Source of the DNA: Promethearchaeota archaeon
GTDB lineage: Archaea; Asgardarchaeota; Lokiarchaeia; Sigyniarchaeales; SOKP01
Length of the DNA: 64,000 bases
Assembly (NCBI GenBank): GCA_016839705.1
Contig: JAEOTR010000017.1
Span: 32,001-96,000, forward strand
Reading direction: 5' to 3'
In this document: piece after piece, positions 9,878 through 35,761 of the stretch
Position numbering within the stretch: the first letter of the stretch is position 1
Layout of the letters: each line of letters starts with the position of its first letter
Translations under genes and position numbers: made by a program
The notes under the pieces: model-generated
The model's input: the letters and a program-made list of their open reading frames with translations, nothing else
Told to the model about the DNA's origin: nothing
The model's database searches: none

Positions 9878-10549
9878 TTAAATAACCTTTATCCTGTTTA
9901 ATAATATGTCCTCGAAGAATATGTGTTTTTTTTCTACTATCTCATTTTCAAATCCGAGCTCATTAATTTGTTTATTTAATTCATCTAAATTTGTCCTATT
10001 TGAACTGATGAAATAGATATAATGAGCTTTTTTAAAATTTAGAAAAATTCTGGCTTCCTTAATAAAGTCAATAATTATTTCATAACCCTTAATCCCTCCA
10101 TTCCAACTATGATCAATCTTCTTTTCATTTTTGTTCTCATTGACTAAAGATGAGGAGGGTAAGTATGGGGGATTAAAAATTATAATATTAAATGAGGATT
10201 TTAGGTATTCTGGAAAATTTTTAAACAAATCTGACTGAAGGAAGACAATTTCATTATTGAAATTGTTTAAGATTTCATTTTTTTTGGCACACATAATTGC
10301 ATCATCTAGGATATCGGAAGCGAATATTTTTGGATTAAAATTTTTGTTTTTTAACTTAAGATAATGAAGGAAAATTGCAATTATCCCGGTTCCTGTTCCT
10401 AAATCTAAAATATATTCAATCTCATTTACATTTATCCCATCAAAATAGCTATTATTAAAAGATTTTGAAAAATAATCAATTATAAGATAAGTATCATCCG
10501 ATGGAAAGTAAATATCCTCAGAATTGCATTCAATTATAGGATCAGATAT
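9878..10549 (-). CDS. hemK: HemK2/Mtq2-type protein-glutamine N5 methyltransferase; extended 85 codons 5' of track start, probable ATA start
   Basis: Extension encodes IYFPSDDTYL and ILDLGTGTG; NPPY in body; in-frame TAA two codons before ATA 10549. Confidence 0.85.
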   Translation of the reverse strand: MSDPIIECNSEDIYFPSDDTYLIIDYFSKSFNNSYFDGINVNEIEYILDLGTGTGIIAIFLHYLKLKNKNFNPKIFASDILDDAIMCAKKNEILNNFNNEIVFLQSDLFKNFPEYLKSSFNIIIFNPPYLPSSSLVNENKNEKKIDHSWNGGIKGYEIIIDFIKEARIFLNFKKAHYIYFISSNRTNLDELNKQINELGFENEIVEKKHIFFEDILLNRIKVI

Positions 10550-10574
10550 TTGTTATCACATCATTGTATTGAGT

Positions 10575-11411
10575 TTAAAGGTAAAACAATCTACTAATTT
10601 CAATAATTTCATCGTTATTAAAGGTAGATACTCTTTTATTTTCATAACCACTTCTGCTCAAAATCTGGAGAATTATATCTTTTGTATAATAATTATTCTT
10701 TATCGCTTTGTAATAAAAAAATAACGCATTGGCTATATTTTTACCTTTATAAGGCATGATTCCCGCAATAAATTTTAAAAAATAGTTCCTAGAATTTATA
10801 TCTACCAAAAAGGGGTTTAAACTTTCATGGGGAATAATTTTTATTAGAAGTAGATCGATTTTTGGAATAGGATAAAAACTGTTTCGTGGTATATTAGATT
10901 TGGAGATTGGCTTCATAAACGCATTTAGAGTCACACTTATTCTTGAGAAGTCTTTGTAATCTTCTGATAAAAAAATGCGGTTTCCTATACTTTTTTCAAT
11001 AGTTAATATTCCTGAAGGAGGATTTTCTTTGAAAAATACTTTTTCTAATATAGGACCTGTTATTGTGTAAGGTAAATTCGAGATAACCTTATCATGCTTA
11101 GGAAGGCTGACTTCTAAAATATCACCATTAATAACTTCAATATTATTATAGATAGAGAAGACTTCTGAGAGGTATCGGCTCAACTTAGGATCAATTTCAA
11201 CTGCATATATTTTTTTTACTTTTTCCACTAAGAATTCAGTTAAAGCTCCTAATCCAGGTCCTATTTCTAAAATGATTTCTTCTCTGGAAATTTCAGATGT
11301 GGTAATTACTTTTCTTACAATGTTTTTATCGGTCAGAAAGTTTTGTCCTAAATGCTTTTTAGGCTTTAAATTCAATCGTTTTAGAGTTAGTAGGACATCT
11401 TTATAATTCAT
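10575..11411 (-). CDS. rsmA: 16S rRNA adenine dimethyltransferase (RsmA/KsgA/Dim1)
   Basis: KKHLGQNFL, LEIGPGLG, VEID, SNLPY. Confidence 0.96.
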   Translation of the reverse strand: MNYKDVLLTLKRLNLKPKKHLGQNFLTDKNIVRKVITTSEISREEIILEIGPGLGALTEFLVEKVKKIYAVEIDPKLSRYLSEVFSIYNNIEVINGDILEVSLPKHDKVISNLPYTITGPILEKVFFKENPPSGILTIEKSIGNRIFLSEDYKDFSRISVTLNAFMKPISKSNIPRNSFYPIPKIDLLLIKIIPHESLNPFLVDINSRNYFLKFIAGIMPYKGKNIANALFFYYKAIKNNYYTKDIILQILSRSGYENKRVSTFNNDEIIEISRLFYL

Positions 11412-11416
11412 TTGAT

Positions 11417-12067
11417 CTATTCATATTTTTGCGTTTTACTAAAAAGATAGTATTTTACATCTCGTTGAAGTTCTTTGATGATTCTTTGAGCAATAAGTTT
11501 GGTTGGAGATGAGATACTCGTTCTATCGGAAATATCTTGAAATGTTACAAATTTTTGCCTTTCTCTTGTTTCAAGGATTTCCCACATATGCTTTTGACCA
11601 ATTCCAGGTAAGAGTTTCAGAGCATGCATTCTAGGGGTTATTGAGGTGGAATTATTAAAAAAATTGATGAATTCTTCTTCATAATTTAAAACCTCTTTTT
11701 CAAGAATAGGCTGAATCAATGCTTTAGAAGTGCTAGTAAGCTCTTTGTAATCAATCTTTTTTAAAACATCTCGTAATTTATCCTCGTTTACAAATTCTTC
11801 ATAAGTTTTATGTTCTTGAACTTGAATATCAGAGTTTTTATTTAGCTTCACTTCATAGAGTACGAAATCAGGAAAAGTAAGAACTTGTGCAATTGGTGTT
11901 TTGGCCCAGCTTGGTTTATCTTCTTCGAGATGCCCATGTATTAAAAGATCTAATATAACTACCTCTCGAAATTTCTTTATAAACTGCTTTTTCTTTCTGG
12001 GACCATTTCGATAACCTCTTCTTCGAGGTGGACCTCTGTATCGATCTCTTCTTTCCATCATTACCAA
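11417..12067 (-). CDS. DUF655 putative RNA-binding protein
   Basis: FINFFN....ITPRMHALKLLPGIGQKHMW.IL..R HhH motif; conserved position between rpo4 and rsmA. Confidence 0.88.
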   Translation of the reverse strand: MVMMERRDRYRGPPRRRGYRNGPRKKKQFIKKFREVVILDLLIHGHLEEDKPSWAKTPIAQVLTFPDFVLYEVKLNKNSDIQVQEHKTYEEFVNEDKLRDVLKKIDYKELTSTSKALIQPILEKEVLNYEEEFINFFNNSTSITPRMHALKLLPGIGQKHMWEILETRERQKFVTFQDISDRTSISSPTKLIAQRIIKELQRDVKYYLFSKTQKYE

Positions 12068-12187
12068 TATTTATGTTATTTACTTTTCCGTGAACCATCT
12101 TACAATTTAATTGTTGATATACTACTCAATGATTTAGGGTAGCACATTAGAATTTAAAACAATTTAGACTTATAAATTCTTCGTAAT

Positions 12188-12553
12188 TTAAGATGATTTA
12201 ATATCTTCTAGTTCTTCTAATATTACTTCTAATTGCTTATCTGAAAACGTCTTCCCGGCGAAAGACTTCTCGAAAATAATTCTAAGCTCTGGAACTGATT
12301 CTGGATTAATATTAATAACATTAATTGCATAAATTTCTTCAATATCATACTTCTCCATAAGAAAATCTTTCACTTTTCTCGCTGTTTTAGTATCCATTTT
12401 CGCAAATTTATTTACATAATTATATGTAATTTCTTGAAAGTGTGACATTCCTTCTTCAGTATCAATTTCTTCCATTTGTTCTTTTACATATTCCATAATT
12501 TCTTTGACTTCTGGAATTGATACTGCTCGTTCATCTTTTTTACGTCCCGACAT
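12188..12553 (-). CDS. rpo4: RNA polymerase subunit Rpo4 (RpoF)
   Basis: VSIPEVKEI...FQEITYNYVNKFAK...AINVININPESVPELRIIF; gene order rpl21e-rpo4-DUF655. Confidence 0.9.
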   Translation of the reverse strand: MSGRKKDERAVSIPEVKEIMEYVKEQMEEIDTEEGMSHFQEITYNYVNKFAKMDTKTARKVKDFLMEKYDIEEIYAINVININPESVPELRIIFEKSFAGKTFSDKQLEVILEELEDIKSS

Positions 12554-12583
12554 GATAAATCTATTGTTTTTTTTTTTAACACT

Positions 12584-12889
12584 TTATTTTACAGAAGTAG
12601 GATTTAATCTCAAATGCTCTCGACCAATTATTAGGGTTTTATTAGATTTTCCTAATTTAACATCAACTAAGTAGCAACGCCCTCTTTCCCCAATGATTGT
12701 ACCCGTCTTACCATAGTACCTTCGGTGAGGAAGTCCACGCTTATGAACTGATGGATTTCCTATGATGTCGACTTTGTCAGAAATATTGTAATCAATTAAA
12801 AATTTTTCAATTGATCCAAGCCCTCTCTTTCTAACTTTCTTTCGATAAAGTTTCCGTGTCTTATTTCTATAACCTTTATGGATTGTAAT
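12584..12889 (-). CDS. rpl21e: 50S ribosomal protein eL21 (missed by ORF track; probable ATT start)
   Basis: Manual translation HKGYRNKTRKLYRK...DKVDIIGNPSVHKRGLPHRRYYGKTGTIIGERGRCYLVDV..G...KTLIIGREHL; GGTG 7 nt upstream of ATT. Confidence 0.93.
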   Translation of the reverse strand: MTIHKGYRNKTRKLYRKKVRKRGLGSIEKFLIDYNISDKVDIIGNPSVHKRGLPHRRYYGKTGTIIGERGRCYLVDVKLGKSNKTLIIGREHLRLNPTSVK

Positions 12890-12981
12890 AATCGAACACC
12901 ATTAAATTTGTAATGAGTGGATTTATGAATAATAACTTATTTATTTTTTGATTTTAGATTGATGAAATACATCTTTTTATT

Positions 12982-14340
12982 TTAATATATGATTTCTATT
13001 ACATCTAATTCTCTACAAACTAAAGGTACTTCAAACACTTCTGAAAAAGAAGGAGAGGTACGACCACTATCTCCGTTTATTAGTTCTTTTATATAAGTTC
13101 CACCTTGTGTTTCAATAATAAATTCAAACAAATTAGAATTAACATATTTTCCTCCTATATTATGAATGATTTTCTTTCTTACTAAATCAGCACGTCGGTG
13201 GGAAACTCTAATGGGAGTTCTTTGATTAATTTTCTTGTTTTCAAATGTGAGTTTTAACTTCTTTATTTTTTCTTCAAATATTTTTTTAGTTATTCTAATT
13301 TCAGGAACAACTAATGCTCTATAGACTTTTTTGGTCTTAGATGCTTCACTTTTCATGTAAATGACTTCTCTTTTATTGCTAAATCTTAGATCTCGAATTT
13401 TTACTTTCTTTTTAGTAATTTTATTCACATTACTCTCCAGTTTAATTAAATCTAAAGTACGAACTTTTGGATTTCTCAATTCAAGAACAAAGGGTCTTCC
13501 CTCACCTAGCATTTTCACATCAATATCTTCTCTACCAGCACCGTGAAACTTGGAATCAGTAGCCTTTGATTCTGCAACGAATTCTGGACTGATTAATTCT
13601 TCCACACTTGTTAAATATTGCTTTCCTGAAAAATCGCATAATGTACATCCTTTTCCCATGCAATTTTTGCATAACCAATGGGTTTGCGGAATACCTCTTA
13701 TAAACTTATTATATCTCCCCTGTACAAAAAGAGATTTTAATTTTAATTTAATATCAGAAGAATCATAATTAAAAAAATATATTAAGGACACGTCTGGAGT
13801 ACTGAACTCTGGAGGTTTATTAAGTTTTATTGATAAAAATTTCCCAACTTCTCGATTGAAATGACTTTTAAAAGATTCTGCTTCTAAAATCTCTAATTGA
13901 GCCTTTAAATCATCTTCCCGATTTATGATTTGAGAATCTGGAGAAGAACCTACTAGGAAATTTTTAAATTCAATTCCGTCGAGGATTTGTATGGCTTTTT
14001 CTCCATATTCATTGATTTTTGAAAAAATATTTTGACATAAATAGCACAATTGATTTGATTTTAATAGAGAGAATTCTATACCCTCATTTTTTAATACTTC
14101 TTGAGCTGGAACATAATTAGCTTTTTCTGCTAATATTTTTAGATTAGATAAAGCAATATTTTGTTGTTCAGTATTATTTGATAAAAATTTTTTATGATTT
14201 TCCATAGTTAAAGAGAGCAATAAAGAATTTCCCCTTTCTTGGTTAGTTGTGTATGACCCTAATAAAGAAAACATTCTACCAAGACAATGAACACAGAGGT
14301 AGTATCGATTGTAAATTTTTAAAACTATGTCAAAAATCAT
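12982..14340 (-). CDS. pus10: tRNA pseudouridine 54/55 synthase Pus10
   Basis: LCVHCLGR, GRYNK..RGIPQT.W, FHGAGREDIDV.MLG.GRPF, QRTP.RV.HRRAD, GGTYIKELI.GD.GRT.PS. Confidence 0.95.
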   Translation of the reverse strand: MIFDIVLKIYNRYYLCVHCLGRMFSLLGSYTTNQERGNSLLLSLTMENHKKFLSNNTEQQNIALSNLKILAEKANYVPAQEVLKNEGIEFSLLKSNQLCYLCQNIFSKINEYGEKAIQILDGIEFKNFLVGSSPDSQIINREDDLKAQLEILEAESFKSHFNREVGKFLSIKLNKPPEFSTPDVSLIYFFNYDSSDIKLKLKSLFVQGRYNKFIRGIPQTHWLCKNCMGKGCTLCDFSGKQYLTSVEELISPEFVAESKATDSKFHGAGREDIDVKMLGEGRPFVLELRNPKVRTLDLIKLESNVNKITKKKVKIRDLRFSNKREVIYMKSEASKTKKVYRALVVPEIRITKKIFEEKIKKLKLTFENKKINQRTPIRVSHRRADLVRKKIIHNIGGKYVNSNLFEFIIETQGGTYIKELINGDSGRTSPSFSEVFEVPLVCRELDVIEIIY

Positions 14341-14514
14341 ATCTACTTAAATTTAGTTTTTCTTTATTTATTGATTTTATTTAGGAAAATAAACATAGTA
14401 AAAAAAAATTTAAAATTACGAGGTATTTTCCTATTTAATTTTAAATAGTAATTCACATTAACATTGAAAACCCTACATTTACCTTGAATTTAGTTAGATA
14501 AAGATATTAGGTAA

Positions 14515-14655
14515 ATAACACAAGGATTAAAAGCGTTTGTTAAGTGGTTTGACGTTGAAAAGGGATACGGGTTCATAACTTCTGAGGGAATGAAGGATAT
14601 ATTCTTCTATTTTCCTAATATTGAGATGTCAGGATAGAAAAGGCTATATAGCTAA
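14515..14655 (+). pseudogene. Degenerate cold-shock protein (CspA family) gene
   Basis: VKWFDVEKGYGFITSEGMKDIFFYFPNIEMSG*KRL: RNP1 intact, RNP2 His lost, TAG at 14635, truncated, no ATG/GTG/TTG start. Confidence 0.75.
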
Positions 14656-14686
14656 TAATTGTAAAGATAAAATCAATTTCATAAAT

Positions 14687-15688
14687 TTAATCTTCATCTT
14701 CGGACCATCCAAGTTCTTTTAGTACGGAACCTAATGTTTCTGATTCTTCTTCCAATACAAATTCTGTATCATATTCTGATGCAGAAGATTCTATATCAAA
14801 ATCAGGAGGCGCTAATTCTTCAAGAGAGGGTAAATCACTCAATGGGGGGAGTACTTCTTCTGTTGGGGTTCTATCAGGAACACTTATTTCTTCTATTGGT
14901 GATATTTTTTCAGAAACGGGCTCATCCTCAATTTCCATTGGAGCATATTCATCAAGAGGGATAGGAGGAACCTCATCATCGTATACTTCAAATTCTGGTT
15001 GAGATTCAGCTATAGGGGTTTTCTCCACTAATAATGGGGTCGTCTCGATAATTTTTGCTTCTTTAACCTCTTTTTCTATCCCCAGTCCAACGGATTTAGG
15101 GATTGAAACAATTTTAGTCGCATGAGTCGGTTCAAGTTCCTCAAATTCTTCGTCTTCCTTTTCCCAATCATCTAAAAAACCCAAAAGATCATCTAAGGCA
15201 GCTTTATCTTGTTCAACTGATGGTTTTTGTAATGTTAAAACTTCTTCCTCTTCGATTTTCTTTAATTCGGATTTTTCCAATGAAAGAACCATTTCTGTTT
15301 CTTTATCACCAGAAATTAATTTATTTAATTTTCGGGCTACTTCTCTTAAATAACCCAGATAATATCCAATTCGATAAACTGCACTTAATCCTCCAAATAC
15401 AATAAATTCATCATTAATCGCCATTAATATGCTATATCCGGAGGAGTTATGCAAAAGGATTTCCGTTAAAGCTCCGTGATCGGTTGCTTGATTTAATCTT
15501 AAACCTAAATCAATTAATGCCGTACTTGAAGCGGATGTCGCATCTGCGTCTAATTCTGAAGAGAAAGCAGTTGCTACCTTCATTCCTACCCGATCTAGAA
15601 CGATTAAATTCTCAAGATCAGTTTTATTTTCTTCCTCTTTTAAAACATACATCATTTTTTCTCTTATCTCTTCTTGAATCGACGACAT
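14687..15688 (-). CDS. Roadblock/LC7-domain protein with long acidic Pro/Glu-rich C-terminal region
   Basis: N-terminal ~125 aa roadblock pattern (IVLDRVGMKVA...SA.S..L......G.L.EILL....GY.ILM.I). Confidence 0.8.
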   Translation of the reverse strand: MSSIQEEIREKMMYVLKEEENKTDLENLIVLDRVGMKVATAFSSELDADATSASSTALIDLGLRLNQATDHGALTEILLHNSSGYSILMAINDEFIVFGGLSAVYRIGYYLGYLREVARKLNKLISGDKETEMVLSLEKSELKKIEEEEVLTLQKPSVEQDKAALDDLLGFLDDWEKEDEEFEELEPTHATKIVSIPKSVGLGIEKEVKEAKIIETTPLLVEKTPIAESQPEFEVYDDEVPPIPLDEYAPMEIEDEPVSEKISPIEEISVPDRTPTEEVLPPLSDLPSLEELAPPDFDIESSASEYDTEFVLEEESETLGSVLKELGWSEDED

Positions 15689-15781
15689 TTTGTTATCACC
15701 TAAAAGGATCGAATAAGATATTTATGTTAAGATTTAAGTATAGATAGATTGTTTCTTTTAATATATTTTTACTTTATTATA

Positions 15782-16489
15782 TTATAAGAACTCAGATAGG
15801 TTCATTTGAGTTGTAGAGGGTTGTTGCATCTTTTCAAAAGAATAATCTGATAGATCACTTATAATATTCTTAATTTTATTAACTACCTCATCTGGAGTTA
15901 ATTTTTCGGTATCGATAGTAAATACATTTGTTCTATCAGTTAAAAACTTCTTATAGAACGCGAGAATTTTTAGCAGATAATTTCTGTCATTTTCATTCCA
16001 TTCTATTCGAATTAAATCTAATGAACCTCTCCGAATTATCCTTTTTAAAATAGTTTCAGGTTTTGCTGTTAAATATATTATATAATCCTCTTTCCATTTA
16101 ATGGATTTGTAAGTGTCGAGGATAAGGTTATAATCTTTTTCTTGGAGATTTAAGCTTTTTGAATAGACCAGCACACATAATGGCGTTCTATCCAAAATTA
16201 TTATTCTTCCATTATATTTATTATCAAAATTAAGAATATTTTGATTTCTTCGAATGAGTTGTTGTAAAAAATGTAACTCACTCCTAAATCCAATTTGTTT
16301 ATCGGAGGATCCAAAAGGAAAGGGGGGTTTCTTGACGTACCTTTCAGGGAAAAACTTAAATTTGTTGTTATCCTTGACACATTTTTTTAAAGAATTGAAG
16401 ACCTTTGTTTTCCCTACACCATGAGCACCAGCAAAAGACAAGATAATGTTGTCTTTAGAACCCTTATTTCTGTAAAAAGTTTTGCTCAA
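15782..16489 (-). CDS. Deoxynucleoside/thymidylate kinase family P-loop kinase
   Basis: GAHGVGKT, IILDR, IIYL.A.PETILKRI..RG. Confidence 0.8.
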   Translation of the reverse strand: MSKTFYRNKGSKDNIILSFAGAHGVGKTKVFNSLKKCVKDNNKFKFFPERYVKKPPFPFGSSDKQIGFRSELHFLQQLIRRNQNILNFDNKYNGRIIILDRTPLCVLVYSKSLNLQEKDYNLILDTYKSIKWKEDYIIYLTAKPETILKRIIRRGSLDLIRIEWNENDRNYLLKILAFYKKFLTDRTNVFTIDTEKLTPDEVVNKIKNIISDLSDYSFEKMQQPSTTQMNLSEFL

Positions 16490-16615
16490 TCCCTTTTACT
16501 CCAATCTAATGATAATTTATCGTGTAAATATAAATATAGTATTTAGTAGATCTAGAGTTTATTGATTTTCCTAATTATTAAAATTTTATATTGAGGGAGT
16601 AATGAAAGGTTTAAA

Positions 16616-17689
16616 TTAAAAAAATATTAAAGAAACTATAAGAATATTATACAAAATATTTGTTATAAGGGTACTATAAATATTCCCATTTGTTACTTCA
16701 AAGATAATCCCAATTATTAGAAAACTAATGAAATTTAGAAAAAAATACACAGGGTTAGGATTTAATACTAACATCAAAATTGTATATGCTAAAGCTACTA
16801 TAACAATTACGTATATCCTATTTTTAAATTTCTGCTTTAATGCGTTATGTAATACGCCCCTGTATGCTATTTCTATTGAGAACGTTCCTATAACCATTAA
16901 CACTATAAGTAAGAAAACCCAGATGAAATCAGCATCTCTTATTATCTGGTTTTGCATAGCGACATCTGAAATCACACTAGATAAGTCTAATCCAATATTC
17001 GCCAAATTGTTAATTAAAGCACTAAAAAGAAAGTCGAAGAGAATTAAAAGTGCAGCGCCAATGGCACCAATAATAATACTAAATAAAATCTTTTTAGAAT
17101 CTTTAAAAAACCCTAATTTTTCAGAGCTGTGTTTCTTAGAATAAATATAATATAGAGGGTAAATACCAAATAATGCTTCAGGAATCTGGCTTATTAAAAA
17201 CATCTGGATATTTAACTCGATAGTCTCACTTCCTCCCTGAGAAACTAATAAAAAGTATATAAGAAAGAAAACAATTATGTAAATATACATACAAGTGCCA
17301 AAAACATTTAAACCTTCTCTTAGATTCCATTGGTCTTTTTTTAGAAGAAATTTTTGTTCAAGTTCCAGTTTTTTATTGGTAAATATTAAACCAGGCTTTT
17401 TTTTGATTACTTCTTTTTTTGCTTCTGAAACTCTTTCTAAAACAGTATCACAAATTGGACATTGATCTAAAATAGTTGAATTGACGAGAGACCCACATCC
17501 TGGACATTTACGAGAAATCTCAGCTTTTTGAATTGAAGTCGGTTTATAGATGATTTGTGGTTCTTTGAGTTCTTTACTCCCATTAAGTTTAATAACAAGT
17601 TTACCGCAATTCGGGCAATAGGTTTTAGTACCAACATCAGTTCCACAATAAACACAGTATTTAATTTTTTTTTCGTTGTTTTTGGACAT
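16616..17689 (-). CDS. Double zinc ribbon + CPBP-like membrane domain (catalytic residues degenerate)
   Basis: Four CxxC pairs; IEIAYRG in place of EExxFRG; NILYN in place of HxxxN. Confidence 0.72.
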   Translation of the reverse strand: MSKNNEKKIKYCVYCGTDVGTKTYCPNCGKLVIKLNGSKELKEPQIIYKPTSIQKAEISRKCPGCGSLVNSTILDQCPICDTVLERVSEAKKEVIKKKPGLIFTNKKLELEQKFLLKKDQWNLREGLNVFGTCMYIYIIVFFLIYFLLVSQGGSETIELNIQMFLISQIPEALFGIYPLYYIYSKKHSSEKLGFFKDSKKILFSIIIGAIGAALLILFDFLFSALINNLANIGLDLSSVISDVAMQNQIIRDADFIWVFLLIVLMVIGTFSIEIAYRGVLHNALKQKFKNRIYVIVIVALAYTILMLVLNPNPVYFFLNFISFLIIGIIFEVTNGNIYSTLITNILYNILIVSLIFF

Positions 17690-17819
17690 TATATACTCAT
17701 TATTTAAAAATTTATATTATCTTAAAGAGCAAGGTTTTTGAAATTTTACTTGGTTTAATATGTAAATTAGAAATTAAATAATTTGTGACTAAATAAAAAT
17801 AATTAAAATTTATGAATTT

Positions 17820-19082
17820 CTATTTATTATTAAAATTGGTTAAATTGCTTTTAGTACTAGTATATATCTCCATAAGCAATAACCCGTGATAATACGATAT
17901 ACTATCAAAATACCCTTCACCTAAATCTGATTTGTTTACATGGACTAATGCCATTTGAGCATTTAGAGCTGCTTGAATTAATAACTCAACACCTTTATAG
18001 ATTAAGTTGGGGCTCCAAGTTCCTCTTTGAATGTTAGCCCACCATGTAGGACATGAATGTAAACCTCTGTTATAAAACCATCGAGCAGTATTATAATAAT
18101 TTTTAACATCCCAACCCTCACTTGCAGTAAGATCATCTATTAGATTCATCAGGTTATTTAAACTTTTCATAATTTTCCAATAATACTTATGAATATTGTT
18201 ATCAGGATGTTTCCATAAAGGATATGGGATGTTATTTTCCAAATCTTTAGATGTTGTACTCCAACTAGATTCTTTTGGTATGATTATTTCTTCACTAACC
18301 GGAAAATGCTGGCCCAAATCAGATATGAAAACTAATTCCATTTCGTCATCGTTATTTATTAACTCTATGGTTTTTCCCAAAAATGTTTTCTCGTAACCAG
18401 GGATATGATGTCCGAATGTTTCTGCATCTTGAGCAATTATAACATAGGTAGAATTATCTTTTTCCTCGTTCTTATGCAGTTTCTTCGCTTCACTAATAAA
18501 TTTCTTCGGTGTGATATCTTTGAAAGAGATTTTGTTGCTTATTATATCATCCCTAAAGAAGAGTTGAAGTCCATTTGGGGAATAATAAATTTGATCAAAT
18601 GGCCATTCTATTGGACAAGCGATACCACTCATAATTACCCATTTATAACCCAATTCACGTATATGTTTTGCTATACTTCCAGATATTGCCAACTCTGGAG
18701 GAAAAAACCCCTTTCTTTTCCATAACTTACCAAACTCATTTTTGTTAGTTTCTTCATTCAAATGGATCTGTTGATGAACCTCTTTTATTGGAATTAAGGG
18801 GAGAATTGGATGAAATTTTGCGGTCCCAACAATCTCAATCTTTCCTTCAGAAACAAGGTTTTTCAAAAATTCAATTGTGTCTGATAAATCGAATTCGCGA
18901 AGTAAATCAATTAAAACACCATTGATGTTTAGGCATATTTTCGCATTTTCATGATAATCCAGTACTTTAAATAAAGGTTTATAGCATTCTCTATCGATCT
19001 TTCTTAATATGTTTAAATCTTGGGTTGGGGGTTGGTACATATGTAGACAAAAACATATGAAGGTACTCACTTTTAAACTCAT
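17820..19082 (-). CDS. Glycoside hydrolase family 57 protein
   Basis: LHMYQP, HPILPL, GFFPPELA, AQDAETFGHH. Confidence 0.9.
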   Translation of the reverse strand: MSLKVSTFICFCLHMYQPPTQDLNILRKIDRECYKPLFKVLDYHENAKICLNINGVLIDLLREFDLSDTIEFLKNLVSEGKIEIVGTAKFHPILPLIPIKEVHQQIHLNEETNKNEFGKLWKRKGFFPPELAISGSIAKHIRELGYKWVIMSGIACPIEWPFDQIYYSPNGLQLFFRDDIISNKISFKDITPKKFISEAKKLHKNEEKDNSTYVIIAQDAETFGHHIPGYEKTFLGKTIELINNDDEMELVFISDLGQHFPVSEEIIIPKESSWSTTSKDLENNIPYPLWKHPDNNIHKYYWKIMKSLNNLMNLIDDLTASEGWDVKNYYNTARWFYNRGLHSCPTWWANIQRGTWSPNLIYKGVELLIQAALNAQMALVHVNKSDLGEGYFDSISYYHGLLLMEIYTSTKSNLTNFNNK

Positions 19083-19398
19083 CTGTCGAAGTTATATCGT
19101 TTTTTTAACGTTTTAATTTAAAATTAGGTTATTTTAATAATATTTGAAGCTGAAGATTAAGACTTCAATAATCACTATAAAACCTACTATTAATATTGAT
19201 CTATATATTATCTTTTCTACGCTTTTATTTACGCATTTTGATTTACTATATTTAATATTCCTCATCGTTTTAAATTTGAGCAATACATATGAATGTAACT
19301 TTTATGATTTTTGAATGATTACATAGGTGAATTCTTAAATTATGTAACAAAGAATATTATTACAAATTAGGAATTTAAATTCTAAAGAGTAAAATTGG

Positions 19399-20313: not shown

Positions 20314-20441
20314 ATTTTTTTATATTGAAGGAAATAGATAAAAATGTATTCAAATCGAAAAGAGGATAACTCTCCTTCGAAGTCAGAAAACACTCCTTTT
20401 AAAAACGCTAACGTCTAAATACCTAAAATTGAATTTATTTT

Positions 20442-25521: not shown

Positions 25522-25727
25522 TTTTAAAAACTAAACCCAACCTAATAAATTCAAAATTCTCTACAAATCGCTTTATCAAAATTAGTACAAAACCCAAAAT
25601 ACAAAAAAGAATATATTATTCAAGTATCATGTAATATCTGGATATCTTAAAAAATATCACGAAGCTACTTAAATGTCTATTTTATAAAATTTATATTAAT
25701 AAAGGAGTAATTTATTTAATAATTGGA

Positions 25728-26027: not shown

Positions 26028-26109
26028 AAACTTAATAAAAGATTTTAGTGAAATAAATTAATAGATGAAATACTCTTAAACTATTAAGTTTTATTAATAT
26101 TTTTTTGGT

Positions 26110-27342: not shown

Positions 27343-27456
27343 CTAATCTTTTTATAAATATAATTTAGGAAAATATGATCGAAACTTAAGTTTAATTATT
27401 ATGTATTTATTCTTCTGTTTATTCATTGTTACAAAGTTAATTGTAGTAAGTACCTT

Positions 27457-27831
27457 TTATATTGCTGCTATTGCATCTATTTCAACTAAAGCAGTTGACA
27501 TTGGACAAGTTGCTTCAACTGTACTTCTTGTGGGAAAGATTTCATTAACTCCGTTTTCTTCAAAAAATTCTTTATATGCTTGATTCATATTTACAAAATC
27601 ATCCATATTTTTAAGAAAAACGCTTATCTTAACAATATTTGATACTTTTGCTCCGGATGCACTTAAGATTGATTTTATCTTTTCAAGAACAGAAAATGTT
27701 TGTTCTCTTATCCCCTTTTTTTCTGGATTAGGAACTTGACCTGAAATAAAAATAAGATTACCCGCTTTTATCCCAAGGCTATAGGGACCAGCTTTAGGGG
27801 ATCCCGTGTCAATCATTTCTATATTAACCAT
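27457..27831 (-). CDS. ridA: RidA/YjgF/UK114 enamine deaminase
   Basis: GPYS, FISGQ, F..MN..Y..FF, PTRSTV, VEIDAIA; AAGGTGA RBS favours ATG 27831. Confidence 0.92.
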   Translation of the reverse strand: MVNIEMIDTGSPKAGPYSLGIKAGNLIFISGQVPNPEKKGIREQTFSVLEKIKSILSASGAKVSNIVKISVFLKNMDDFVNMNQAYKEFFEENGVNEIFPTRSTVEATCPMSTALVEIDAIAAI

Positions 27832-28072
27832 ATCTATAATCACCTTTGTTTAATTTAATAGTTTGCAGACATTAATAAAATTATCAATTTTACTTTCATT
27901 AGTTTTTAATATCTTTATCATAAATATTTGTTTATTGTCGTATTTGAATCAAACTAATCAACTTTTAATTAAGTTTTAATAAAATTCTTTTTTTAATGAC
28001 TTAGATTAAACAATTATAGCTCTTTAATAAAATCTTGATTACTAACTGTGCCATAAAAAGAATTGAAGCACT

Positions 28073-29872
28073 GTGAATAAGGAAAAAGATAAAATTTGGA
28101 TATTCACATTTGAATATGCGGGGATTGTTAAAGTCGGAGGTTTAGGAGAAGTCCCTGCAAATCAGGCTAAACACATTAATAAAGATTATGAAATAACTGT
28201 TTTTATTCCTTCTCATGGTCAACTTAATAATCTTAGGGAGATACACGATTGGGAGAAATTATCATTTAATTGTGTAGGGCAAATAAATCCATCAATTTTA
28301 GGATTAAGTGATCCTATTAGTTATTATCATATTTCCTTTTACAAATCTAAAATTAATAATGTAAATATCGTTTTATTAGTTGGTGAAAATTATTTTGCAA
28401 GCAAATTTCTAGATGATAGTGCTGTATATAATCCAGATACTCTCAATGGAAAGATTTGTCTTTTTAGTATTGGGATGCGATCTTTAGTAAGTCATATGAT
28501 TGAAGATCAAAAAGAAAATGTACCAGATATCATCCATTTACATGATTATCATGCGGTAATCCCTTTTATTGGCATAAAACAGGAACTGATCAACAATGGT
28601 TTAGACGTACACTCTCTAATTACCATACATCTACTCACTTGGCCGAGACACAGCATCGAATTCTATTATGGGTGTGGAATTGATAAAACCCCAATTAAAA
28701 TATTGTTAGAAAATGGTTATAAGTTGTTTTCTATAGATGAAATCTTCAATTTATGTAAAACATCAAGTAGTTATGATGAAATAAATCAACCTCCGACTGT
28801 AGAAAAAATTGGTGCGGTCATTTGTGATTTAGTCACAACTGTAAGCCAATCTTATCTTATATCTGATATAATTCTAAATTGTGGCAACCATTTAATTGAA
28901 TTTAAGTCTGATTTTTTATGGGATGGATGTGATTGGGATTATGATGAGATTAAATTAGAAGTTTTAAGAAAACATGGAGAAGATATGCATAAAGTTTTAG
29001 ACATTCCTCATGAGATAGATTTAACATTTTCAGATATGAAACGATACCTTTTAACTCACAAGATTGCTCATTTGGCCAGAAGTCCCTTAATCAGGTCAGA
29101 AAAAGTTCTTAAAGTAATAAGTGAAATATCGAATGGAAACCAGTTTATCAAAAATGGGAATATCAAAGCATTTAATGAACCTGGGCCATTAGTTATTACT
29201 ACAGGAAGAATATCACATCAAAAAGGATTCGAAACTATTTTTGAAGCCATCCCAGAGGTAATTCAAGCAATACCTACTGCGAAGTTTTTATTTATGATTT
29301 TACCAACGGATTATAGTTTAGAAGAAATCAAATCTTACTCTCATATAGTAAAAAGATATCCAGATAATCTGAGAATTATCTTCGGGGTAGCAAAGGACAT
29401 ATTTTATTTGGCTCATATCTCTGCAGATGTCTACTGTGCTTTATCAAGATGGGAACCATTTGGTATTATCGCTTTGGAAGCGATGGCTTCAAAGCTTCCA
29501 ATTATTGCTACGCGTGTAGGGGGCTTTCAAGAGACAATAATCGATATCAGAAATTCCCCTGAAATAGGTACGGGTATTTTAATTGATAAAGATAATCCTT
29601 CTCAATTTGCCAATGCCTTGATTTCTCTTTTTTTGTTGTCAGAGATTGCCAAAAAGGCAAAATTGAAAGAATCTATTTATGAAACGGAAGTATTAAATTT
29701 AGTTAATCAAATACCTGACGAAATTATTAAATCGTTAGTTTTACTCGATCCTGACGTGTATCAAAAGATTAAAGAAAACTGCTATAAAAGAGTAGAAAAT
29801 AACTTTAGGTGGAGCATCGTATCGAAAAAATTGAGAGAACTATATACTAGAATAAGAGATTTAGATAAATAG
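28073..29872 (+). CDS. glgA: Glycogen/starch synthase (GT5-like)
   Basis: KVGGLG, HLHDYH, TTVS..Y, GRISHQKG, SRWEPFGI.ALEAM. Confidence 0.88.
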   Translation: MNKEKDKIWIFTFEYAGIVKVGGLGEVPANQAKHINKDYEITVFIPSHGQLNNLREIHDWEKLSFNCVGQINPSILGLSDPISYYHISFYKSKINNVNIVLLVGENYFASKFLDDSAVYNPDTLNGKICLFSIGMRSLVSHMIEDQKENVPDIIHLHDYHAVIPFIGIKQELINNGLDVHSLITIHLLTWPRHSIEFYYGCGIDKTPIKILLENGYKLFSIDEIFNLCKTSSSYDEINQPPTVEKIGAVICDLVTTVSQSYLISDIILNCGNHLIEFKSDFLWDGCDWDYDEIKLEVLRKHGEDMHKVLDIPHEIDLTFSDMKRYLLTHKIAHLARSPLIRSEKVLKVISEISNGNQFIKNGNIKAFNEPGPLVITTGRISHQKGFETIFEAIPEVIQAIPTAKFLFMILPTDYSLEEIKSYSHIVKRYPDNLRIIFGVAKDIFYLAHISADVYCALSRWEPFGIIALEAMASKLPIIATRVGGFQETIIDIRNSPEIGTGILIDKDNPSQFANALISLFLLSEIAKKAKLKESIYETEVLNLVNQIPDEIIKSLVLLDPDVYQKIKENCYKRVENNFRWSIVSKKLRELYTRIRDLDK

Positions 29873-29883
29873 GAGAACATAAT

Positions 29884-31065
29884 TTGACACTTTCGAAACG
29901 ATCTGTAATTCTTATTCTATTCTCTATTTTAGTTTTAAACACTGCGGGAATAGGATTAGTTACATATTTACCAAAGTATTTATTATACTTAGGTATAGAA
30001 AATCCCGTTATCCAATTAGTAATGACTATTTTTCCATTAACTTTATTTGTATTTCCACCAATTTTAGGAAAGCTTTCTGATAAATTTCAGAATAGGATTC
30101 TTTTTATAATTATTGGAGCTTTAGGGATTGTTTTATCATTTGTGTTGTTTCTATTTACTCAAAATTTATTCCTAATTATAGCATTATCACTATTATATGG
30201 TTTTTTTGGAGCTGCTTTTCGAATTATTTTCACTCTCTATGCCGAATTAGTAGATAATGATACGAGATATATCTCTTATTACAATGCCGTAAGCACATGC
30301 GGATGGTTTTTGGGAAGCCAGTTAGGAGGAATTTTTATTGATGTATATGGGATTCAAAATATCTTCTTATTTCTAATTTTATTTTCAACAATAAATCTAG
30401 GCTCCATTCTTCTCATAAAGGAGAATAGAACTTTAATTTTAAGTCATTATGATAATAAAACTAATGAATCCCGTAACAACATAAATGAAGTAAAAACAAT
30501 TTCAATTTCGGTATATCTTGGATTATTTTTCAGAAATTTCGGCATAAAGCCAATCATGGTTGTTCTCTCAATAATTATGGGTTTTCATATTTCCAGTGAT
30601 ACACAAGTAGGATTTTTAATAGGTTTAAATTTCTTAATTCAAGTTGCCTTAATGCTATTAATAGGACATATTATTTCAGAAAAAAATGAAAAATTGATAC
30701 TTATCCTCGGATATTTTTTTAGCACAATCGCAATATTAGGATATATTTTTTCAAATAGTTTTTTCAGCTTTTTAATATCCCAGATTTTTATTGCGTTCAG
30801 TTATTCAATGTTTTGGTCTGCTACCGTTATGTATATCGCACAAAATTCTACCCCAAAAAATAAAGGTCGATATATGGGATATGCAAACTCAAGCACTTTT
30901 TCTGGTGGCTTTTTAGGAGGACTCCTATTTAGTTATCTATTAGTGGTGTTTAATTCAAATTATTATAGTGCAATGTATTTTATGATTATATTTCCCGTAC
31001 TTTCTTCTATAAGTATATTATTGAAGTTTAAACAACATTCAAAGCCAAAACTAATTAATAAATAA
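29884..31065 (+). CDS. MFS transporter
   Basis: 12 TM pattern, GKLSDKFQNR motif A. Confidence 0.9.
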   Translation: MTLSKRSVILILFSILVLNTAGIGLVTYLPKYLLYLGIENPVIQLVMTIFPLTLFVFPPILGKLSDKFQNRILFIIIGALGIVLSFVLFLFTQNLFLIIALSLLYGFFGAAFRIIFTLYAELVDNDTRYISYYNAVSTCGWFLGSQLGGIFIDVYGIQNIFLFLILFSTINLGSILLIKENRTLILSHYDNKTNESRNNINEVKTISISVYLGLFFRNFGIKPIMVVLSIIMGFHISSDTQVGFLIGLNFLIQVALMLLIGHIISEKNEKLILILGYFFSTIAILGYIFSNSFFSFLISQIFIAFSYSMFWSATVMYIAQNSTPKNKGRYMGYANSSTFSGGFLGGLLFSYLLVVFNSNYYSAMYFMIIFPVLSSISILLKFKQHSKPKLINK

Positions 31066-31109
31066 AAAATTTGGGATTTATAATTTTAATCCACATCAAA
31101 TTGATTAAA

Positions 31110-32291
31110 TTGGTTTTATTAAAAAGATCTGTTATTTTAATTTTAATCTCGGCATTTATTATTTTTTTAGCAGCTTGGATGGTTATGGCGTTTTTACCTC
31201 AATATCTTCAAGTATTAGGTACTCCAGGTCCGATTATACAAATAATAATAACAATTTTCCTCTCTACATTATTCATATTCCCATATATTTTAGGTAAGTA
31301 CTCAGATAAAATCCAGAATCGAAAGTATTTTATAATAATTGGAACTGCGGGTATGATTTTAACTCCATTTCTATTACTATTTACAACAAATTTAATCCTA
31401 ATCACTATAATATTATTTTTTTTTGGAATGTTTGCATCTACTTCTTCGATTATATTTACATTATATTCAGAGTTAGTTCAAAATAATTCCAAATGGATAT
31501 CTTACTATAATGCCCTAACAGCTTTGGGATGGTTTGTGGGAGCGCAAATAGCAGGTGTATTTATCGAGATTTATGGGTTTAATCTTGTATTTTTACTTTC
31601 TTTAATTGGTATGGTGATAGGTATGATATTTGTTGTTTTTATTAAGGAAGATAGGCAAATTATCGTGAATTCTGCGAAAGAGAATAGAATAATAGATGTG
31701 AATAATTCTCAAAATGATGAACTTTTAGTATCTAAATCAATTTATTATGGTGTATTTTTTAGAAGTTTTGGAATTCAACCAATTTTGGCTGTGCTTGTGG
31801 TAATCATGGGTTTTCATTTAAATAGTGATATAGAAATGGGATTTTTACTTGGGTTAAACCCCCTACTACAATTTTTTCTTATGATTTTATTGGGAAGGTT
31901 AATAACTGACAAAAATTTTAAGCTTTTTATGTTTAGCGGTTATCTATTAAGCATTTTGGTCATTTTGGGATTTCTTCTCGCCGCAGATTTCTGGGGTTTT
32001 TTATTATCTCAATTTCTAGTAGCATTTAGCTTCTCAGTATATTGGATGACAACACTGACTTATATTTCAAAAAACACAACTCCTCAAAATAAAGGATTGT
32101 ATATAGGTTATGTAAATACTAGTGCATTTGCGGGAAATGCAATTGGTGGTTTGTTTTTAGGTTTGTTATTAATTTTCGTTAATTCAGATTATTATATCGC
32201 TATGTATTTCATGATAGGTTTTCCTATAATAGCATCAATACTCATTCTATTAGGTAGAAAAAAGTTATTTACTATCCCAAAAAGGATTTAA
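31110..32291 (+). CDS. MFS transporter (tandem paralog)
   Basis: GKYSDKIQNR; TTG 31110 aligns N-terminus (KRSVILIL) with upstream paralog. Confidence 0.9.
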   Translation: MVLLKRSVILILISAFIIFLAAWMVMAFLPQYLQVLGTPGPIIQIIITIFLSTLFIFPYILGKYSDKIQNRKYFIIIGTAGMILTPFLLLFTTNLILITIILFFFGMFASTSSIIFTLYSELVQNNSKWISYYNALTALGWFVGAQIAGVFIEIYGFNLVFLLSLIGMVIGMIFVVFIKEDRQIIVNSAKENRIIDVNNSQNDELLVSKSIYYGVFFRSFGIQPILAVLVVIMGFHLNSDIEMGFLLGLNPLLQFFLMILLGRLITDKNFKLFMFSGYLLSILVILGFLLAADFWGFLLSQFLVAFSFSVYWMTTLTYISKNTTPQNKGLYIGYVNTSAFAGNAIGGLFLGLLLIFVNSDYYIAMYFMIGFPIIASILILLGRKKLFTIPKRI

Positions 32292-34232
32292 GGTTTGAAT
32301 CAGAGCGTTGGGTTTATCAGGAATAATTTCTATTTCATCTCTTATCCACTCAGAAATCCATTTATTTTTAGCTTTAAAACGACTATCAAGAAATATTATC
32401 GCTCCTTTATCCGTAATTTTTCGTATTGGTCTACCAGAAGCTTGATTTGCTCTTTGAACTGCGGGATATAAGTAGGCAAAGTTCCACCCTTGTCGATAAA
32501 AAACTTTATCATAATATTTAATTTTTGCATTAACTCGTGGAGTAGGTAAATGATAAGGGAAGCCAGCAATGACCACAGAGTTCATGTGATTTCCCGGATA
32601 ATCTTCCCCCTCTGAATTTCTCCCCCCACATACACCAAGTAAAACCGCACCTCCATTTGAGGACATTGTTTTAAATTGATCAACCATTGCATTGTTCTCG
32701 GAAGCTGATAATCCAGGAGCTTCTTTAAAAAAGCTCTTGTTGTTTCTTTCTACAATTTTATCTATCCCATTAGAAAGAAGTCCTTTAAGTATTTGATATG
32801 AGGCACAAAAGATACCAACGTTCGCAGGCGTACAAGCCAATACTTCATTGATTTTATTAATTATTTTCTCAAACATTTCAGGAGTTCTATTTTCGCGCTT
32901 AGTATCTACTCCCTCAACAATAACAGCCTTAATATTTTTCTTTTGGAAAGGAGAATTTGCAATTATTTCATTGAAACTTTTACCACTCTCATTTAATCCC
33001 ATTAGATTTTTATACACAAAAGAGTTTACTGTCCCAGAAAGATTTAAGGAAGTATAAACTGATTTTAAGATAGGAATTACGATTTCTCTTGGATCTAAAG
33101 CCACAATCTCTAAAGAAATTGATTTTTTTCCTTTAACTAGCTTAACTGTAAAACAGAAAAAATAATTTTCGAGGTTGTATGTTTTTAGCCATTTTAACCA
33201 AAACTCAGAGAAGGAACCTAAGAAATCTCTTGAAATTTTCCCATCTGAGATTTTCTCATCATGCACTGAAATACTGAATTCCTGCATTTCTTCAATTAAA
33301 TTCTTAAATTCATTTAAATCACTAAAATCTAATTCTTTAAAAAGGAGTTTTAAATATTGAATTGGATCCAGTGCTTGCTCCCCTAAATATAATTTATTTT
33401 TTTTCTCATCGAAGTGATCTAATAAAGTACTCACAAATCTTTGCATCGATCGTGGTGATCTATACATTTCTAGGTCCTTCAAACATAATCTCAATGAATA
33501 TGGTGTTATTCTATTAGAATTCACTTCTGTTGCTACGTCAATTATATTATGACATTCATCGAGAACTAAAATACAATTTTTAAGTTCTTGATCAACAAAT
33601 TGTAAAAAAAGATCTCGAATGAAGGGATTGAATATCCATTGATAATTACAAATAATCACTCTCATTTCTTTTAATAAAAATTTACATAAAAAATAAGGAC
33701 AGATTTTCTCATCCTTACAAAATCCTATTAGTTCCTCAGCATCAATTGGTTTGTTGAATATCTCTGGGGCAATTTTTATTGGATTCTCTACTTTTCCTTT
33801 TTTTTTTATTAAGGTTAAAAAGTGAGAACAATTTCTGTTTTGCCTTAAATCTTTACAAACTGACATAGACTCTTTTGGATTCAATTTTAGGCTTAATAAA
33901 GTATGATTAAGGCACATTTCATTTCTCCCTCTAATTGAAACTCCATTTAGTTTCAATCCAAGGTTATCACTCTCCAATTTTTGTGAGATTTTTATTAGTT
34001 CTTTAATAACCCTTCTATTTTGAGAGTGTGTACGGCACATGTAAATGATTTTTAAATTTTTCTCAAATGCTAAAGACAGTAGTCCACTTAAGGCAATAAT
34101 TGTTTTTCCAGCACCATTCGGTGCTACTAATAAAATATTTTTCCTTGATTTTGAGTCTACCTCAATTTGTTTGATAATTTTTTCTTGTTCTCTTCTAAAT
34201 TGATCGTACGGAAAAAAAGATAAGTAATTTAT
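32265..34232 (-). CDS. xpd: XPD/Rad3/DinG Fe-S DNA helicase; extended 64 codons 5' of track start, probable ATA start
   Basis: Extension has Q motif FFPYDQFRREQ and Walker A APNGAGKT; body has four Fe-S Cys, DECHN, SGT, SEGEDY, QASGRPIR. Confidence 0.9.
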   Translation of the reverse strand: MNYLSFFPYDQFRREQEKIIKQIEVDSKSRKNILLVAPNGAGKTIIALSGLLSLAFEKNLKIIYMCRTHSQNRRVIKELIKISQKLESDNLGLKLNGVSIRGRNEMCLNHTLLSLKLNPKESMSVCKDLRQNRNCSHFLTLIKKKGKVENPIKIAPEIFNKPIDAEELIGFCKDEKICPYFLCKFLLKEMRVIICNYQWIFNPFIRDLFLQFVDQELKNCILVLDECHNIIDVATEVNSNRITPYSLRLCLKDLEMYRSPRSMQRFVSTLLDHFDEKKNKLYLGEQALDPIQYLKLLFKELDFSDLNEFKNLIEEMQEFSISVHDEKISDGKISRDFLGSFSEFWLKWLKTYNLENYFFCFTVKLVKGKKSISLEIVALDPREIVIPILKSVYTSLNLSGTVNSFVYKNLMGLNESGKSFNEIIANSPFQKKNIKAVIVEGVDTKRENRTPEMFEKIINKINEVLACTPANVGIFCASYQILKGLLSNGIDKIVERNNKSFFKEAPGLSASENNAMVDQFKTMSSNGGAVLLGVCGGRNSEGEDYPGNHMNSVVIAGFPYHLPTPRVNAKIKYYDKVFYRQGWNFAYLYPAVQRANQASGRPIRKITDKGAIIFLDSRFKAKNKWISEWIRDEIEIIPDKPNALIQTLNPFWDSK

Positions 34233-34330
34233 TTTCTACACCTAAATTCTAATTAACTAAGCGTTGCATTTTTAAATATTTTTAAATTTTATATTGCCAA
34301 AGGGTATAAAAATTTATTCAATTATCGATA

Positions 34331-35761
34331 TTAATCGTGTAATACTGGTTTTCTAGCAGCTAGAACCGCATCCAAACGTTTAATTGGAGTATTATGAGGA
34401 GAGGTTTTTAGTGTATTTGGATCTGATTCTGCTTCATAGTATATTTTATCCATTACTTCAATAAAATGATCCAAAGAGGCTTTTGATTCAGTTTCAGTGG
34501 GTTCTATCATTAATGCTCCCTGAACCACTAGAGGAAAGTAAACCGTTGGGGCATATATTCCATAATCAAGCATTCTTTTAGCAACATCTTCGGTAGTTAT
34601 ATTATTAGGTAAATTGCGATCAGTGATAACGAATTCGTGTTGACAAGTACGCTTATATGGTAAAAAGTAATTATCTTTCAAAAGTACTCTTAAATAATTG
34701 GCATTTAAAACGGATATCTGTCCAACTCTTTTTAATCCCTCAGCACCTAATGCTAATATATAAGCGTAAGCCCGAACTATTATCCCAAAATTTCCCCAAA
34801 ACGCTTTAATTCGGCCTATAGAATTATCATTGTTTTCTTGGCAAGCTAAACCATTTTCAGTTGATATTATACATGGTCCTGGAAGATATGGGACAAGTTC
34901 ATCTATCACTCCTAATGGTCCTGAACCTGGACCTCCACCTCCATGTGGTGTTGAAAAAGTTTTATGCAAATTCAGATGGACAATATCAAATCCCATATCT
35001 CCGGGTCTACAAATACCCAATATGGGATTCAAATTTGCACCATCATAATAGCATAAACCCCCATTTTCATGAACAATTTTGGTGATTTTTTTAATTTGCC
35101 GATCAAATATTCCTAATGTATTAGGATTCGTTAACATAATTCCTGCTACATCACCATCTGCCATAGCATATTCTAAATGATCAAGCGGTACTTCCCCAAA
35201 TTTATTCGATTTTAATTCTATAATTGAGAATCCTGCCATTTTAGCTGAAGCAGGATTAGTTCCGTGAGCTGAATCGGGTACAATAATTTTATGTTTTTGA
35301 ATTCCTTTTGATTCAAAAAACTTTTTTATAATCAATAATCCTGCTAATTCTCCATGCGCCCCAGCTGCAGGTTGAAGTGAAAAACCATCCATACCTGTTA
35401 TTTCCCCTAATAATTTTGAGATGCCATATAATAATTCAATCGAACCATGATTTTCTTCTTGAAGGGGATGTACTTGGGAAAATCCTTTTAACCTTTCTAC
35501 AACTTCATTAATTTTCGGGTTATATTTCATGGTACAAGAACCAAGAGGATATATTCCTGTATCCACACCATAATTATGTTGGCTTAACTTGACAAAATGA
35601 CGAATAATTTCAATTTCTGGAATATTCGGAATAGGAATTTTTTCTCTAATTAAAGATTTAGGAAGTATTTCATTGAGATCAACGACTTCTATGTCCATAT
35701 TTGGTATGTAATTACTCTGGGCTCCATTGATTCCTCTATCGAATATTAAATCAGATTTTAT
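34331..35761 (-). CDS. gcvPB: Glycine dehydrogenase (decarboxylating) subunit 2; extended 21 codons, probable ATA/ATC start
   Basis: YPLGSCTMKYNP, HLNLHKTF.TPHGGGGPG; extension contains conserved LIF(D/E) N-terminus. Confidence 0.95.
   Translation of the reverse strand: MKSDLIFDRGINGAQSNYIPNMDIEVVDLNEILPKSLIREKIPIPNIPEIEIIRHFVKLSQHNYGVDTGIYPLGSCTMKYNPKINEVVERLKGFSQVHPLQEENHGSIELLYGISKLLGEITGMDGFSLQPAAGAHGELAGLLIIKKFFESKGIQKHKIIVPDSAHGTNPASAKMAGFSIIELKSNKFGEVPLDHLEYAMADGDVAGIMLTNPNTLGIFDRQIKKITKIVHENGGLCYYDGANLNPILGICRPGDMGFDIVHLNLHKTFSTPHGGGGPGSGPLGVIDELVPYLPGPCIISTENGLACQENNDNSIGRIKAFWGNFGIIVRAYAYILALGAEGLKRVGQISVLNANYLRVLLKDNYFLPYKRTCQHEFVITDRNLPNNITTEDVAKRMLDYGIYAPTVYFPLVVQGALMIEPTETESKASLDHFIEVMDKIYYEAESDPNTLKTSPHNTPIKRLDAVLAARKPVLHD

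Follow-up and report, generated by a model that had tools for sequence, protein, structure and literature searches.

Comparison of a Promethearchaeota genome with its relatives indicates that a few percent of its genes, core genes among them, are initiated at near-cognate codons placed behind a Shine-Dalgarno (SD) motif. The genes that carry this finding are four in a 64,000-nucleotide stretch of the genome (the window; C88:32001-96000 of the assembly, with window coordinates counted from 1), encoding the methyltransferase HemK2, ribosomal protein eL21, the helicase XPD and the glycine decarboxylase subunit GcvPB, together with a fifth window gene and the gene for initiation factor aIF1, which lies outside the window. 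Near-cognate initiation at these genes, at AUA, AUU or AUC and less often at CUG or ACG, is in our judgment very nearly secure from the comparison of sequences. For the pattern as a whole, the explanation we favor, with a probability of roughly 0.78, is that intact genes use SD-led near-cognate starts, that these genes form two classes, one in which the codon switches among start-capable triplets and one in which a single weak codon is kept, and that aIF1 takes part in a feedback on its own synthesis.

Start codons of the window genes and their orthologues

The source genome (G000) is a 3.36-Mb metagenome-assembled genome (MAG) of the Lokiarchaeia (Loki-3 type), in 97 contigs and with approximately 31% GC. 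The four window genes lie on its minus strand, each with a putative start at an Ile codon. The HemK2/MTQ2-type methyltransferase (9878..10549; 223 aa; hemK_rel_arch, TIGR00537) would start at ATA 10549-10547, 5 nt behind GTGAT (10555..10559); eL21 (12584..12889; 101 aa; L21e, NF003303) at ATT 12889-12887, 7 nt behind GGTG (12897..12900); the XPD/Rad3 helicase (32265..34232; 655 aa; rad3, TIGR00604) at ATA 34232-34230, 6 nt behind AGGTG (34239..34243); and GcvPB (34331..35761; 476 aa; NF003346) at ATA 35761-35759, 10 nt behind a GGAGG (35772..35776) that lies within the end of gcvPA. These motifs and spacings, as well as the lack of a canonical start (ATG, GTG or TTG) ahead of the conserved N-terminus, bear out the description in the first-pass annotation. 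In the stop-to-stop frames the first in-frame canonical codon is codon 86 in HemK2, 96 (of 105) in eL21, 65 in XPD and 23 in GcvPB, and an in-frame stop stands 1, 3-4, 1 and 0-2 codons upstream of the Ile codon, respectively. Starting from the first ATG, HemK2 loses its Pfam matches to MTS, Methyltransf_31 and PrmA, and XPD loses DEAD and ResIII, that is, the Q motif and Walker A; starting from the first canonical codon, eL21 loses nearly the whole protein.

A fifth case, which the first-pass annotation had missed in its count of four such genes in about 55, encodes a conserved 377-aa protein (49751..50884, plus strand) with no Pfam or NCBIfam match. Its putative ATT start (49751-49753) stands behind AGTTGAT, the orthologue in a sister genome (G022) likewise has ATT behind GGTTGAT, and 36 of 50 residues ahead of the first ATG are identical between the two. 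The window thus holds 5 near-cognate starts in 57 genes, slightly above, yet compatible with, the genome-wide estimate given below (P=0.08 at 4%). Two mini-frames on the minus strand overlap SD motifs in frame, ATG-ATG-TGA (10564-10556) at HemK2, found in this genome only, and GTG-TAG (34241-34236) at XPD, not kept in sisters; both are probably incidental.

Orthologues in related genomes, which the first-pass annotation had named as a check, place the near-cognate codon in alignment with canonical starts. About 30 genomes of the same genus were compared (30 for eL21, 29 for XPD and 30 for GcvPB), as were 79 related genomes for aIF1, and L-numbers below denote loci in related genomes or metagenome contigs. 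In eL21 the aligned first codon is ATA in 12 genomes, ATC in 6, ATT in 5, TTG in 3, CTG in 3 and ATG in 1, so that all 30 are start-capable, with a GGTG-like motif 6-7 nt before it in nearly all of them. The tree requires a minimum of 14 changes of this codon, none of which leads out of the start-capable set. All six Leu codons in this column are TTG or CTG, which make up 16% of Leu codons genome-wide, whereas TTA, CTT, CTA and CTC, the other 84%, never occur there; what is conserved is therefore the class of codon and not the amino acid. GcvPB behaves similarly: most sisters have ATG or GTG and 7 of 30 have ATA, while the six Val codons in the column are without exception GTG (13% of Val codons), and the 10-nt SD spacing is that of the ATG-starting sisters. 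Alone among the four genes, gcvPB has a start that overlaps the stop of the gene ahead by 4 nt; its ATA and the TAA of gcvPA together form ATAA (35758..35761). In relatives the overlap with gcvPA reads ATAA or ATAG in L061, L062, L078 and L090 and ATGA in L072 and L083.

HemK2 orthologues mostly show GTGAT, 4 nt and then ATT, ATA, ATC or ATG. Many of them are ambiguous because the GTG of the SD is often in frame, and three copies (G000, L098 and L109) lack any canonical option. The start column lies five codons before an Asp-Pro pair in the sisters, and the N-terminus in the source genome is 3 residues shorter. XPD holds ATA in 26 of 29 genomes, with TGGTG as the SD in most sisters; where ATG occupies the column, in L068, the SD has decayed from TGGTG to TGCTG, and L414 has an ATG copy without an SD. 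Outside the window, an EF-2 paralogue (C82:10998-13280, plus strand) starts at ATA in the source genome, and its 52 orthologous loci on independent metagenome contigs have ATG (38), ATA (5), GTG (3), TTG (3), ATT (2) or ACG (1). This gene family (loci L356-L409) also contains a 30-nt, stop-containing insert after an MTDSD motif, in which a 4-bp helix lies between two 3-nt bulges; excision at the bulge cut sites restores the insert-free orthologue sequence, and similar inserts occur at the same and other sites in several metagenome copies. From its sequence, the insert is probably an mRNA intron of the bulge-helix-bulge (BHB) type.

Frequency of near-cognate starts and association with SD motifs

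Homology-anchored start mapping, proposed with the first-pass annotation, was run between the source genome and 1.2 Mb of G022. A start was taken as forced when no canonical codon lay ahead of well-conserved coding sequence; this held for 19 of 666 orthologue pairs in the source genome (2.9%, 95% interval 1.7-4.4%) and for 16 in the sister. The 19 are what remained of 33 flagged pairs after 14 were removed by rule: 8 with a shared nearby ATG (mostly conserved leaders, one probably real), 5 with homology continuing past a TGA, and 1 broken gene. Since a chance GTG, TTG or ATG nearby hides cases, 2.9% is a floor, and near-cognate starts likely occur in 3-6% of genes, with the upper end inferred. 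G044, which like G055 is a single-contig genome of another Lokiarchaeia family, gave 3 of 153 (ATT, ATT and CTG). The SD-led AUH (AUA, AUU or AUC) initiation that had been proposed for this lineage therefore stands, and its frequency greatly exceeds the 0.004-0.024% per codon given in bacterial annotation, a rate that its authors think too low (PMC5499595). ATA is among the commonest near-cognate starts; restriction to AUH does not hold, as CTG and ACG are used too.

Near-cognate starts are strongly associated with SD motifs. An SD with at least 4 matches accompanies 16 of the 19 forced starts, compared with 35% of ATG genes, a difference somewhat inflated by the choice of the best codon; a weak codon thus appears to be tolerated chiefly in the company of an SD. 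In a set of 268 genes that have no canonical codon within the first 20 codons, a strong SD precedes 56 of 636 near-cognate codons (ATA, ATT, ATC, CTG or ACG) and 81 of 3425 other codons, a fourfold enrichment (P=4e-13). There are 79 near-cognate candidates with an SD of 4 or more matches, eS28 among them. Expressed as an excess, near-cognate starts with a strong SD number about 48 in the source genome against 332 canonical ones, or 13% of strong-SD starts; the share is about 13% in G022 as well, 7% in G044 and 1.5% among the 158 genes of pSOL1, a Clostridium plasmid of 31% GC (Fisher P=0.03), and none was seen among 41 M. jannaschii plasmid genes, both controls being small. The SDs of the near-cognate genes match the 3' end of the lineage's 16S rRNA by complementarity and lie at the normal distance from the start.

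Coupling through stop/start overlaps was considered as a general cause and rejected: only 12 ATAA or ATAG overlaps lack a nearby canonical codon, and 2 of these have a strong SD. A gene with an ACG start at C18:58475-59017 is not uL5; by eye its protein resembles HdrC. Two further genes, a 318-aa frame on C76 (plus strand) and a 164-aa frame on C88 (minus strand), may start at GTT behind an SD, one of them being ATT in G022; both have an ATG within 14 codons downstream and were kept out of the counts.

Two of the five pairs removed for homology past a TGA look like selenocysteine codons. In the window, an AhpC/TSA (peroxiredoxin-like) gene identified by Pfam (6578-7225, minus strand) has an in-frame TGA (6952-6950) in a W-stop-T-H-C motif, which is likely a selenocysteine codon, a tRNA-Sec being present in the genome. 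Four genes on C15 and C3, which by eye resemble Hdr and Mvh, share the position of an in-frame TGA with G022 or G044 and are likely selenoproteins.

The start of aIF1 and the weighing of explanations

The gene for aIF1 (L055; C76:32251-31934, minus strand) starts at ATT directly behind two stops. Across 79 related genomes the start is ATT in 76 and ATC in 3, and never ATG, GTG or TTG; the first canonical codon comes no earlier than codon 15, and a near-invariant AGGTTGTGA element lies upstream. In Asgard families f7, f14 and f20, aIF1 has ATA without a canonical alternative. An in-frame TTG-TGA is also present in the aIF1 leader of 78 of the 79 genomes, being absent in L268.

Several explanations would do away with near-cognate initiation altogether. 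That the true codons are ATG, hidden by assembly consensus errors, or that the genes are pseudogenes, might be raised for a MAG in 97 contigs, but the same near-cognate columns recur in metagenome contigs and in 30-79 genomes that were assembled independently, and eL21 and aIF1 are single-copy genes with intact frames. Because the start column is almost always start-capable behind a fixed SD in about 30 sister genomes, we regard consensus error as excluded and assign this pair of explanations a negligible probability. Recoding, whether by stop read-through from an upstream GTG or ATG, frameshifting, splicing of a mini-intron or RNA editing to AUG, finds some encouragement in the in-frame GTG-TAG ahead of XPD and the ATG-ATG-TGA-TAA ahead of HemK2 in the source genome, in the in-frame GTG of the SD in many HemK2 orthologues and in the BHB-type insert of the EF-2 paralogue. 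In the XPD sisters, however, the GTG falls into another frame and the stop is missing; orthologues that bear ATG (L019, L068 and most GcvPB) have it in the same column, at the same distance from the SD and without an insert; and editing would have to convert ATA, ATT, ATC, CTG and ACG alike. We consider recoding highly improbable, and the start columns in relatives make consensus error, pseudogenes, read-through and splicing all very unlikely for these genes.

A changed genetic code in which AUA means Met, an unusual initiator tRNA or the loss of aIF1 is improbable too, if less so than recoding. The prominence of ATA among the near-cognate starts would fit AUA as Met, but ATT, ATC, CTG and ACG are also used, and internal Met residues pair with ATA and ATT about equally (126 vs 142), so that AUA is not Met-like internally. 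ATG is still preferred at starts, being kept in 256 of 308 orthologous starts (83%), and its replacement by an Ile codon affects about 2% of starts compared with 8.9% of internal Met positions. Inspection of aIF1, aIF2 and the initiator tRNA, another suggested check, revealed no visible defect: the tRNA (C76:9715), interrupted by an intron after position 37, has A1-U72 and three G-C pairs in the anticodon stem, and the genome has aIF1, two aIF1A, aIF2-beta and aIF2-gamma, all ATG-started except aIF1. The anti-SD tail of 16S rRNA, which is unassembled in the source genome, is normal in two genus members (GAUCACCUCC). There is accordingly no general loss of start fidelity, and the relaxed start-codon selection proposed by the first-pass annotation does not hold genome-wide; nor does it describe aIF1 and XPD, which do not drift but each stay on one weak codon. 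The aIF1A paralogues (C97:32668-32874, minus strand, and C38:3142-3348, plus strand) have basic N-terminal extensions. The frame that holds aIF2-gamma (C97:40758-41984, plus strand) is 539 aa long and extends the N-terminus by about 120 aa; by eye, this extension opens with a helix-hairpin-helix-like segment and continues as a linker rich in Lys and Ser.

The main rival accepts near-cognate initiation and denies selection for it: given a strong SD, seven codons would be about equally usable, and AT-biased mutation would carry ATG to ATA by neutral drift only. The genome's GC content of approximately 31%, the switching of GcvPB and the EF-2 paralogue between ATG and ATA, and the eL21 codon counts, which come close to those expected from composition (Monte Carlo P=0.04, the tips being non-independent), all fit drift, and we leave this rival an appreciable though minority share of the probability. 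Drift fits aIF1 and XPD poorly, since the absence of canonical aIF1 starts and the retention of ATA in XPD argue against it (P<1e-4), as do weak aIF1 starts in several separate Asgard families; drift and selection may hold for different genes. Against selection on aIF1, on the other hand, stand its ATG, GTG or TTG starts in a number of other Asgard families (G044, although it has near-cognate starts at other genes, is one such case) and the near-fixation of synonymous sites at its 5' end (Cys TGT in 77 and Lys AAA in 78 of 79 genomes), so that ATT may be fixed through a general constraint on the region. Because nearby synonymous sites are nearly fixed, selection for the weak aIF1 codon itself is likely rather than shown. 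More generally, genomes of one genus are non-independent samples, archaea other than Lokiarchaeia may share the trait unnoticed given the small plasmid controls, and the support for initiation at near-cognate codons consists of sequence comparison throughout.

Under our preferred explanation, the ordinary initiator Met-tRNAi would decode a one-mismatch codon in the P site of otherwise intact genes, with pairing of the SD to the normal 16S tail holding the mRNA in register so that the near-cognate codon is accepted. That SD compensation is the enabling step seems to us quite probable, and E. coli extracts translate AUA efficiently when a strong SD precedes it (PMC5499595); at gcvPB, initiation is probably aided by ribosomes that restart after the gcvPA stop, which overlaps the start. 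In the larger class (eL21, GcvPB, HemK2 and the EF-2 paralogue), the codon would switch among start-capable triplets as long as the SD is good, and in the smaller class (aIF1 at AUU and XPD at AUA) it would stay on one weak codon. S. solfataricus aIF1 discriminates against AUU in vitro (PMC4705826), so that AUU-started aIF1 would limit its own synthesis; stringency might thereby be kept low enough to let the remaining near-cognate genes with an SD be translated, and their output could be tied to the aIF1 level. We lean modestly toward such a feedback loop as the meaning of the conserved AUU/AUC start. A wider start-stringency circuit, arisen in Lokiarchaeia and separately in several other Asgard lineages, in which aIF1 is self-limiting through AUU or AUA and about 100-170 SD-led near-cognate genes follow its level, is a more tentative proposal, and so is the membership of eL21, eS28, an L7Ae-like protein, the EF-2 paralogue, HemK2 and XPD in the aIF1-linked set.

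Consequences for annotation and comparison with known systems

Near-cognate starts imply that many gene callers shorten these proteins. The database entry for the window XPD, of 591 aa, begins at Met66 and lacks Walker A, and among the 120 best homologue entries 43 lack the Q motif and 20 of these also lack Walker A, although some may be cut by contig ends. The expectation that annotation truncates such genes is thus correct in part, as two NCBI records begin XPD at ATA, indicating that that pipeline already accepts some such starts. Asgard protein sets from callers restricted to ATG, GTG and TTG would contain truncated or missing proteins (XPD without Walker A; eL21), and gene-content, phylogenomic and expression studies can therefore be distorted. 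The XPD of this genus has no counterpart of the Zn-ribbon-like N-terminal extension (C-x2-C, 75-90 aa) carried by many more distant XPD homologues (P0044, P0051, P0053 and others).

Near-cognate starts and autoregulation of fidelity factors are both known kinds of phenomena; none of the papers found describes an archaeon in which near-cognate codons are the principal starts of some percent of the core genes, that of aIF1 included. AUG, GUG and UUG are the start codons given in reviews of initiation in archaea, which do not settle whether weak starts have a control function there (PMC4705826), and literature searches by title and abstract, with most subscription papers outside their coverage, found no paper on non-canonical main starts in Asgard, Lokiarchaeota or Promethearchaeota. 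Since some percent of the core genes, aIF1 included, start at AUH in a close relative of eukaryotes, weak-start control becomes testable in cultured Lokiarchaeia, for which the near-cognate starts of G044, in another family, are relevant. If true, the aIF1 circuit would give archaea the so far missing equivalent of the self-regulation known for IF3 and eIF1, and might be a precursor of the loop found in eukaryotes.

The closest parallels lie in these two factors. According to the accounts cited, IF3 represses itself via the AUU/AUC start of infC (Butler et al. 1987, in PMC4705826; PMC5499595), and eIF1 autoregulates via an AUG in poor context (Ivanov 2010, in PMC6237735 and PMC4705826). Like infC, the aIF1 gene encodes a fidelity factor and has a conserved AUU/AUC behind an SD-like element; as differences, its product shows no homology to IF3 (PMC7531240), its feedback is a proposed one, and E. 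coli has two confirmed near-cognate genes, infC and pcnB (10.1101/063800), compared with 3-6% of genes here. eIF1 is the orthologous factor (SUI1 family) and also has a weak start on its own gene, but eukaryotes keep AUG and weaken its context, whereas the aIF1 start described here is a near-cognate codon led by an SD. Mycoplasma gallisepticum, another low-GC prokaryote, shows frequent AUU/AUC starts (PMC5499595) in a reduced bacterial genome with IF3-based control, whereas the genome studied here is archaeal and 3.4 Mb in size, its initiator tRNA looks canonical and its factors are of the eukaryotic type. Ribosome profiling (Ribo-seq) in Haloferax volcanii placed archaeal ribosomes on near-cognate codons at about 30% of putative alternative sites (PMC7261190); those alternative sites were set aside as possible false positives, and the organism is mostly leaderless, whereas the codons discussed here are the sole possible main starts of core genes. 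Finally, gcvPA/gcvPB resembles the ATGA termination-reinitiation arrangement, in which a 4-nt stop/start overlap with the SD inside the upstream gene couples translation (PMC6728339), but it reads ATAA, and such overlaps explain few of the near-cognate starts in this genome.

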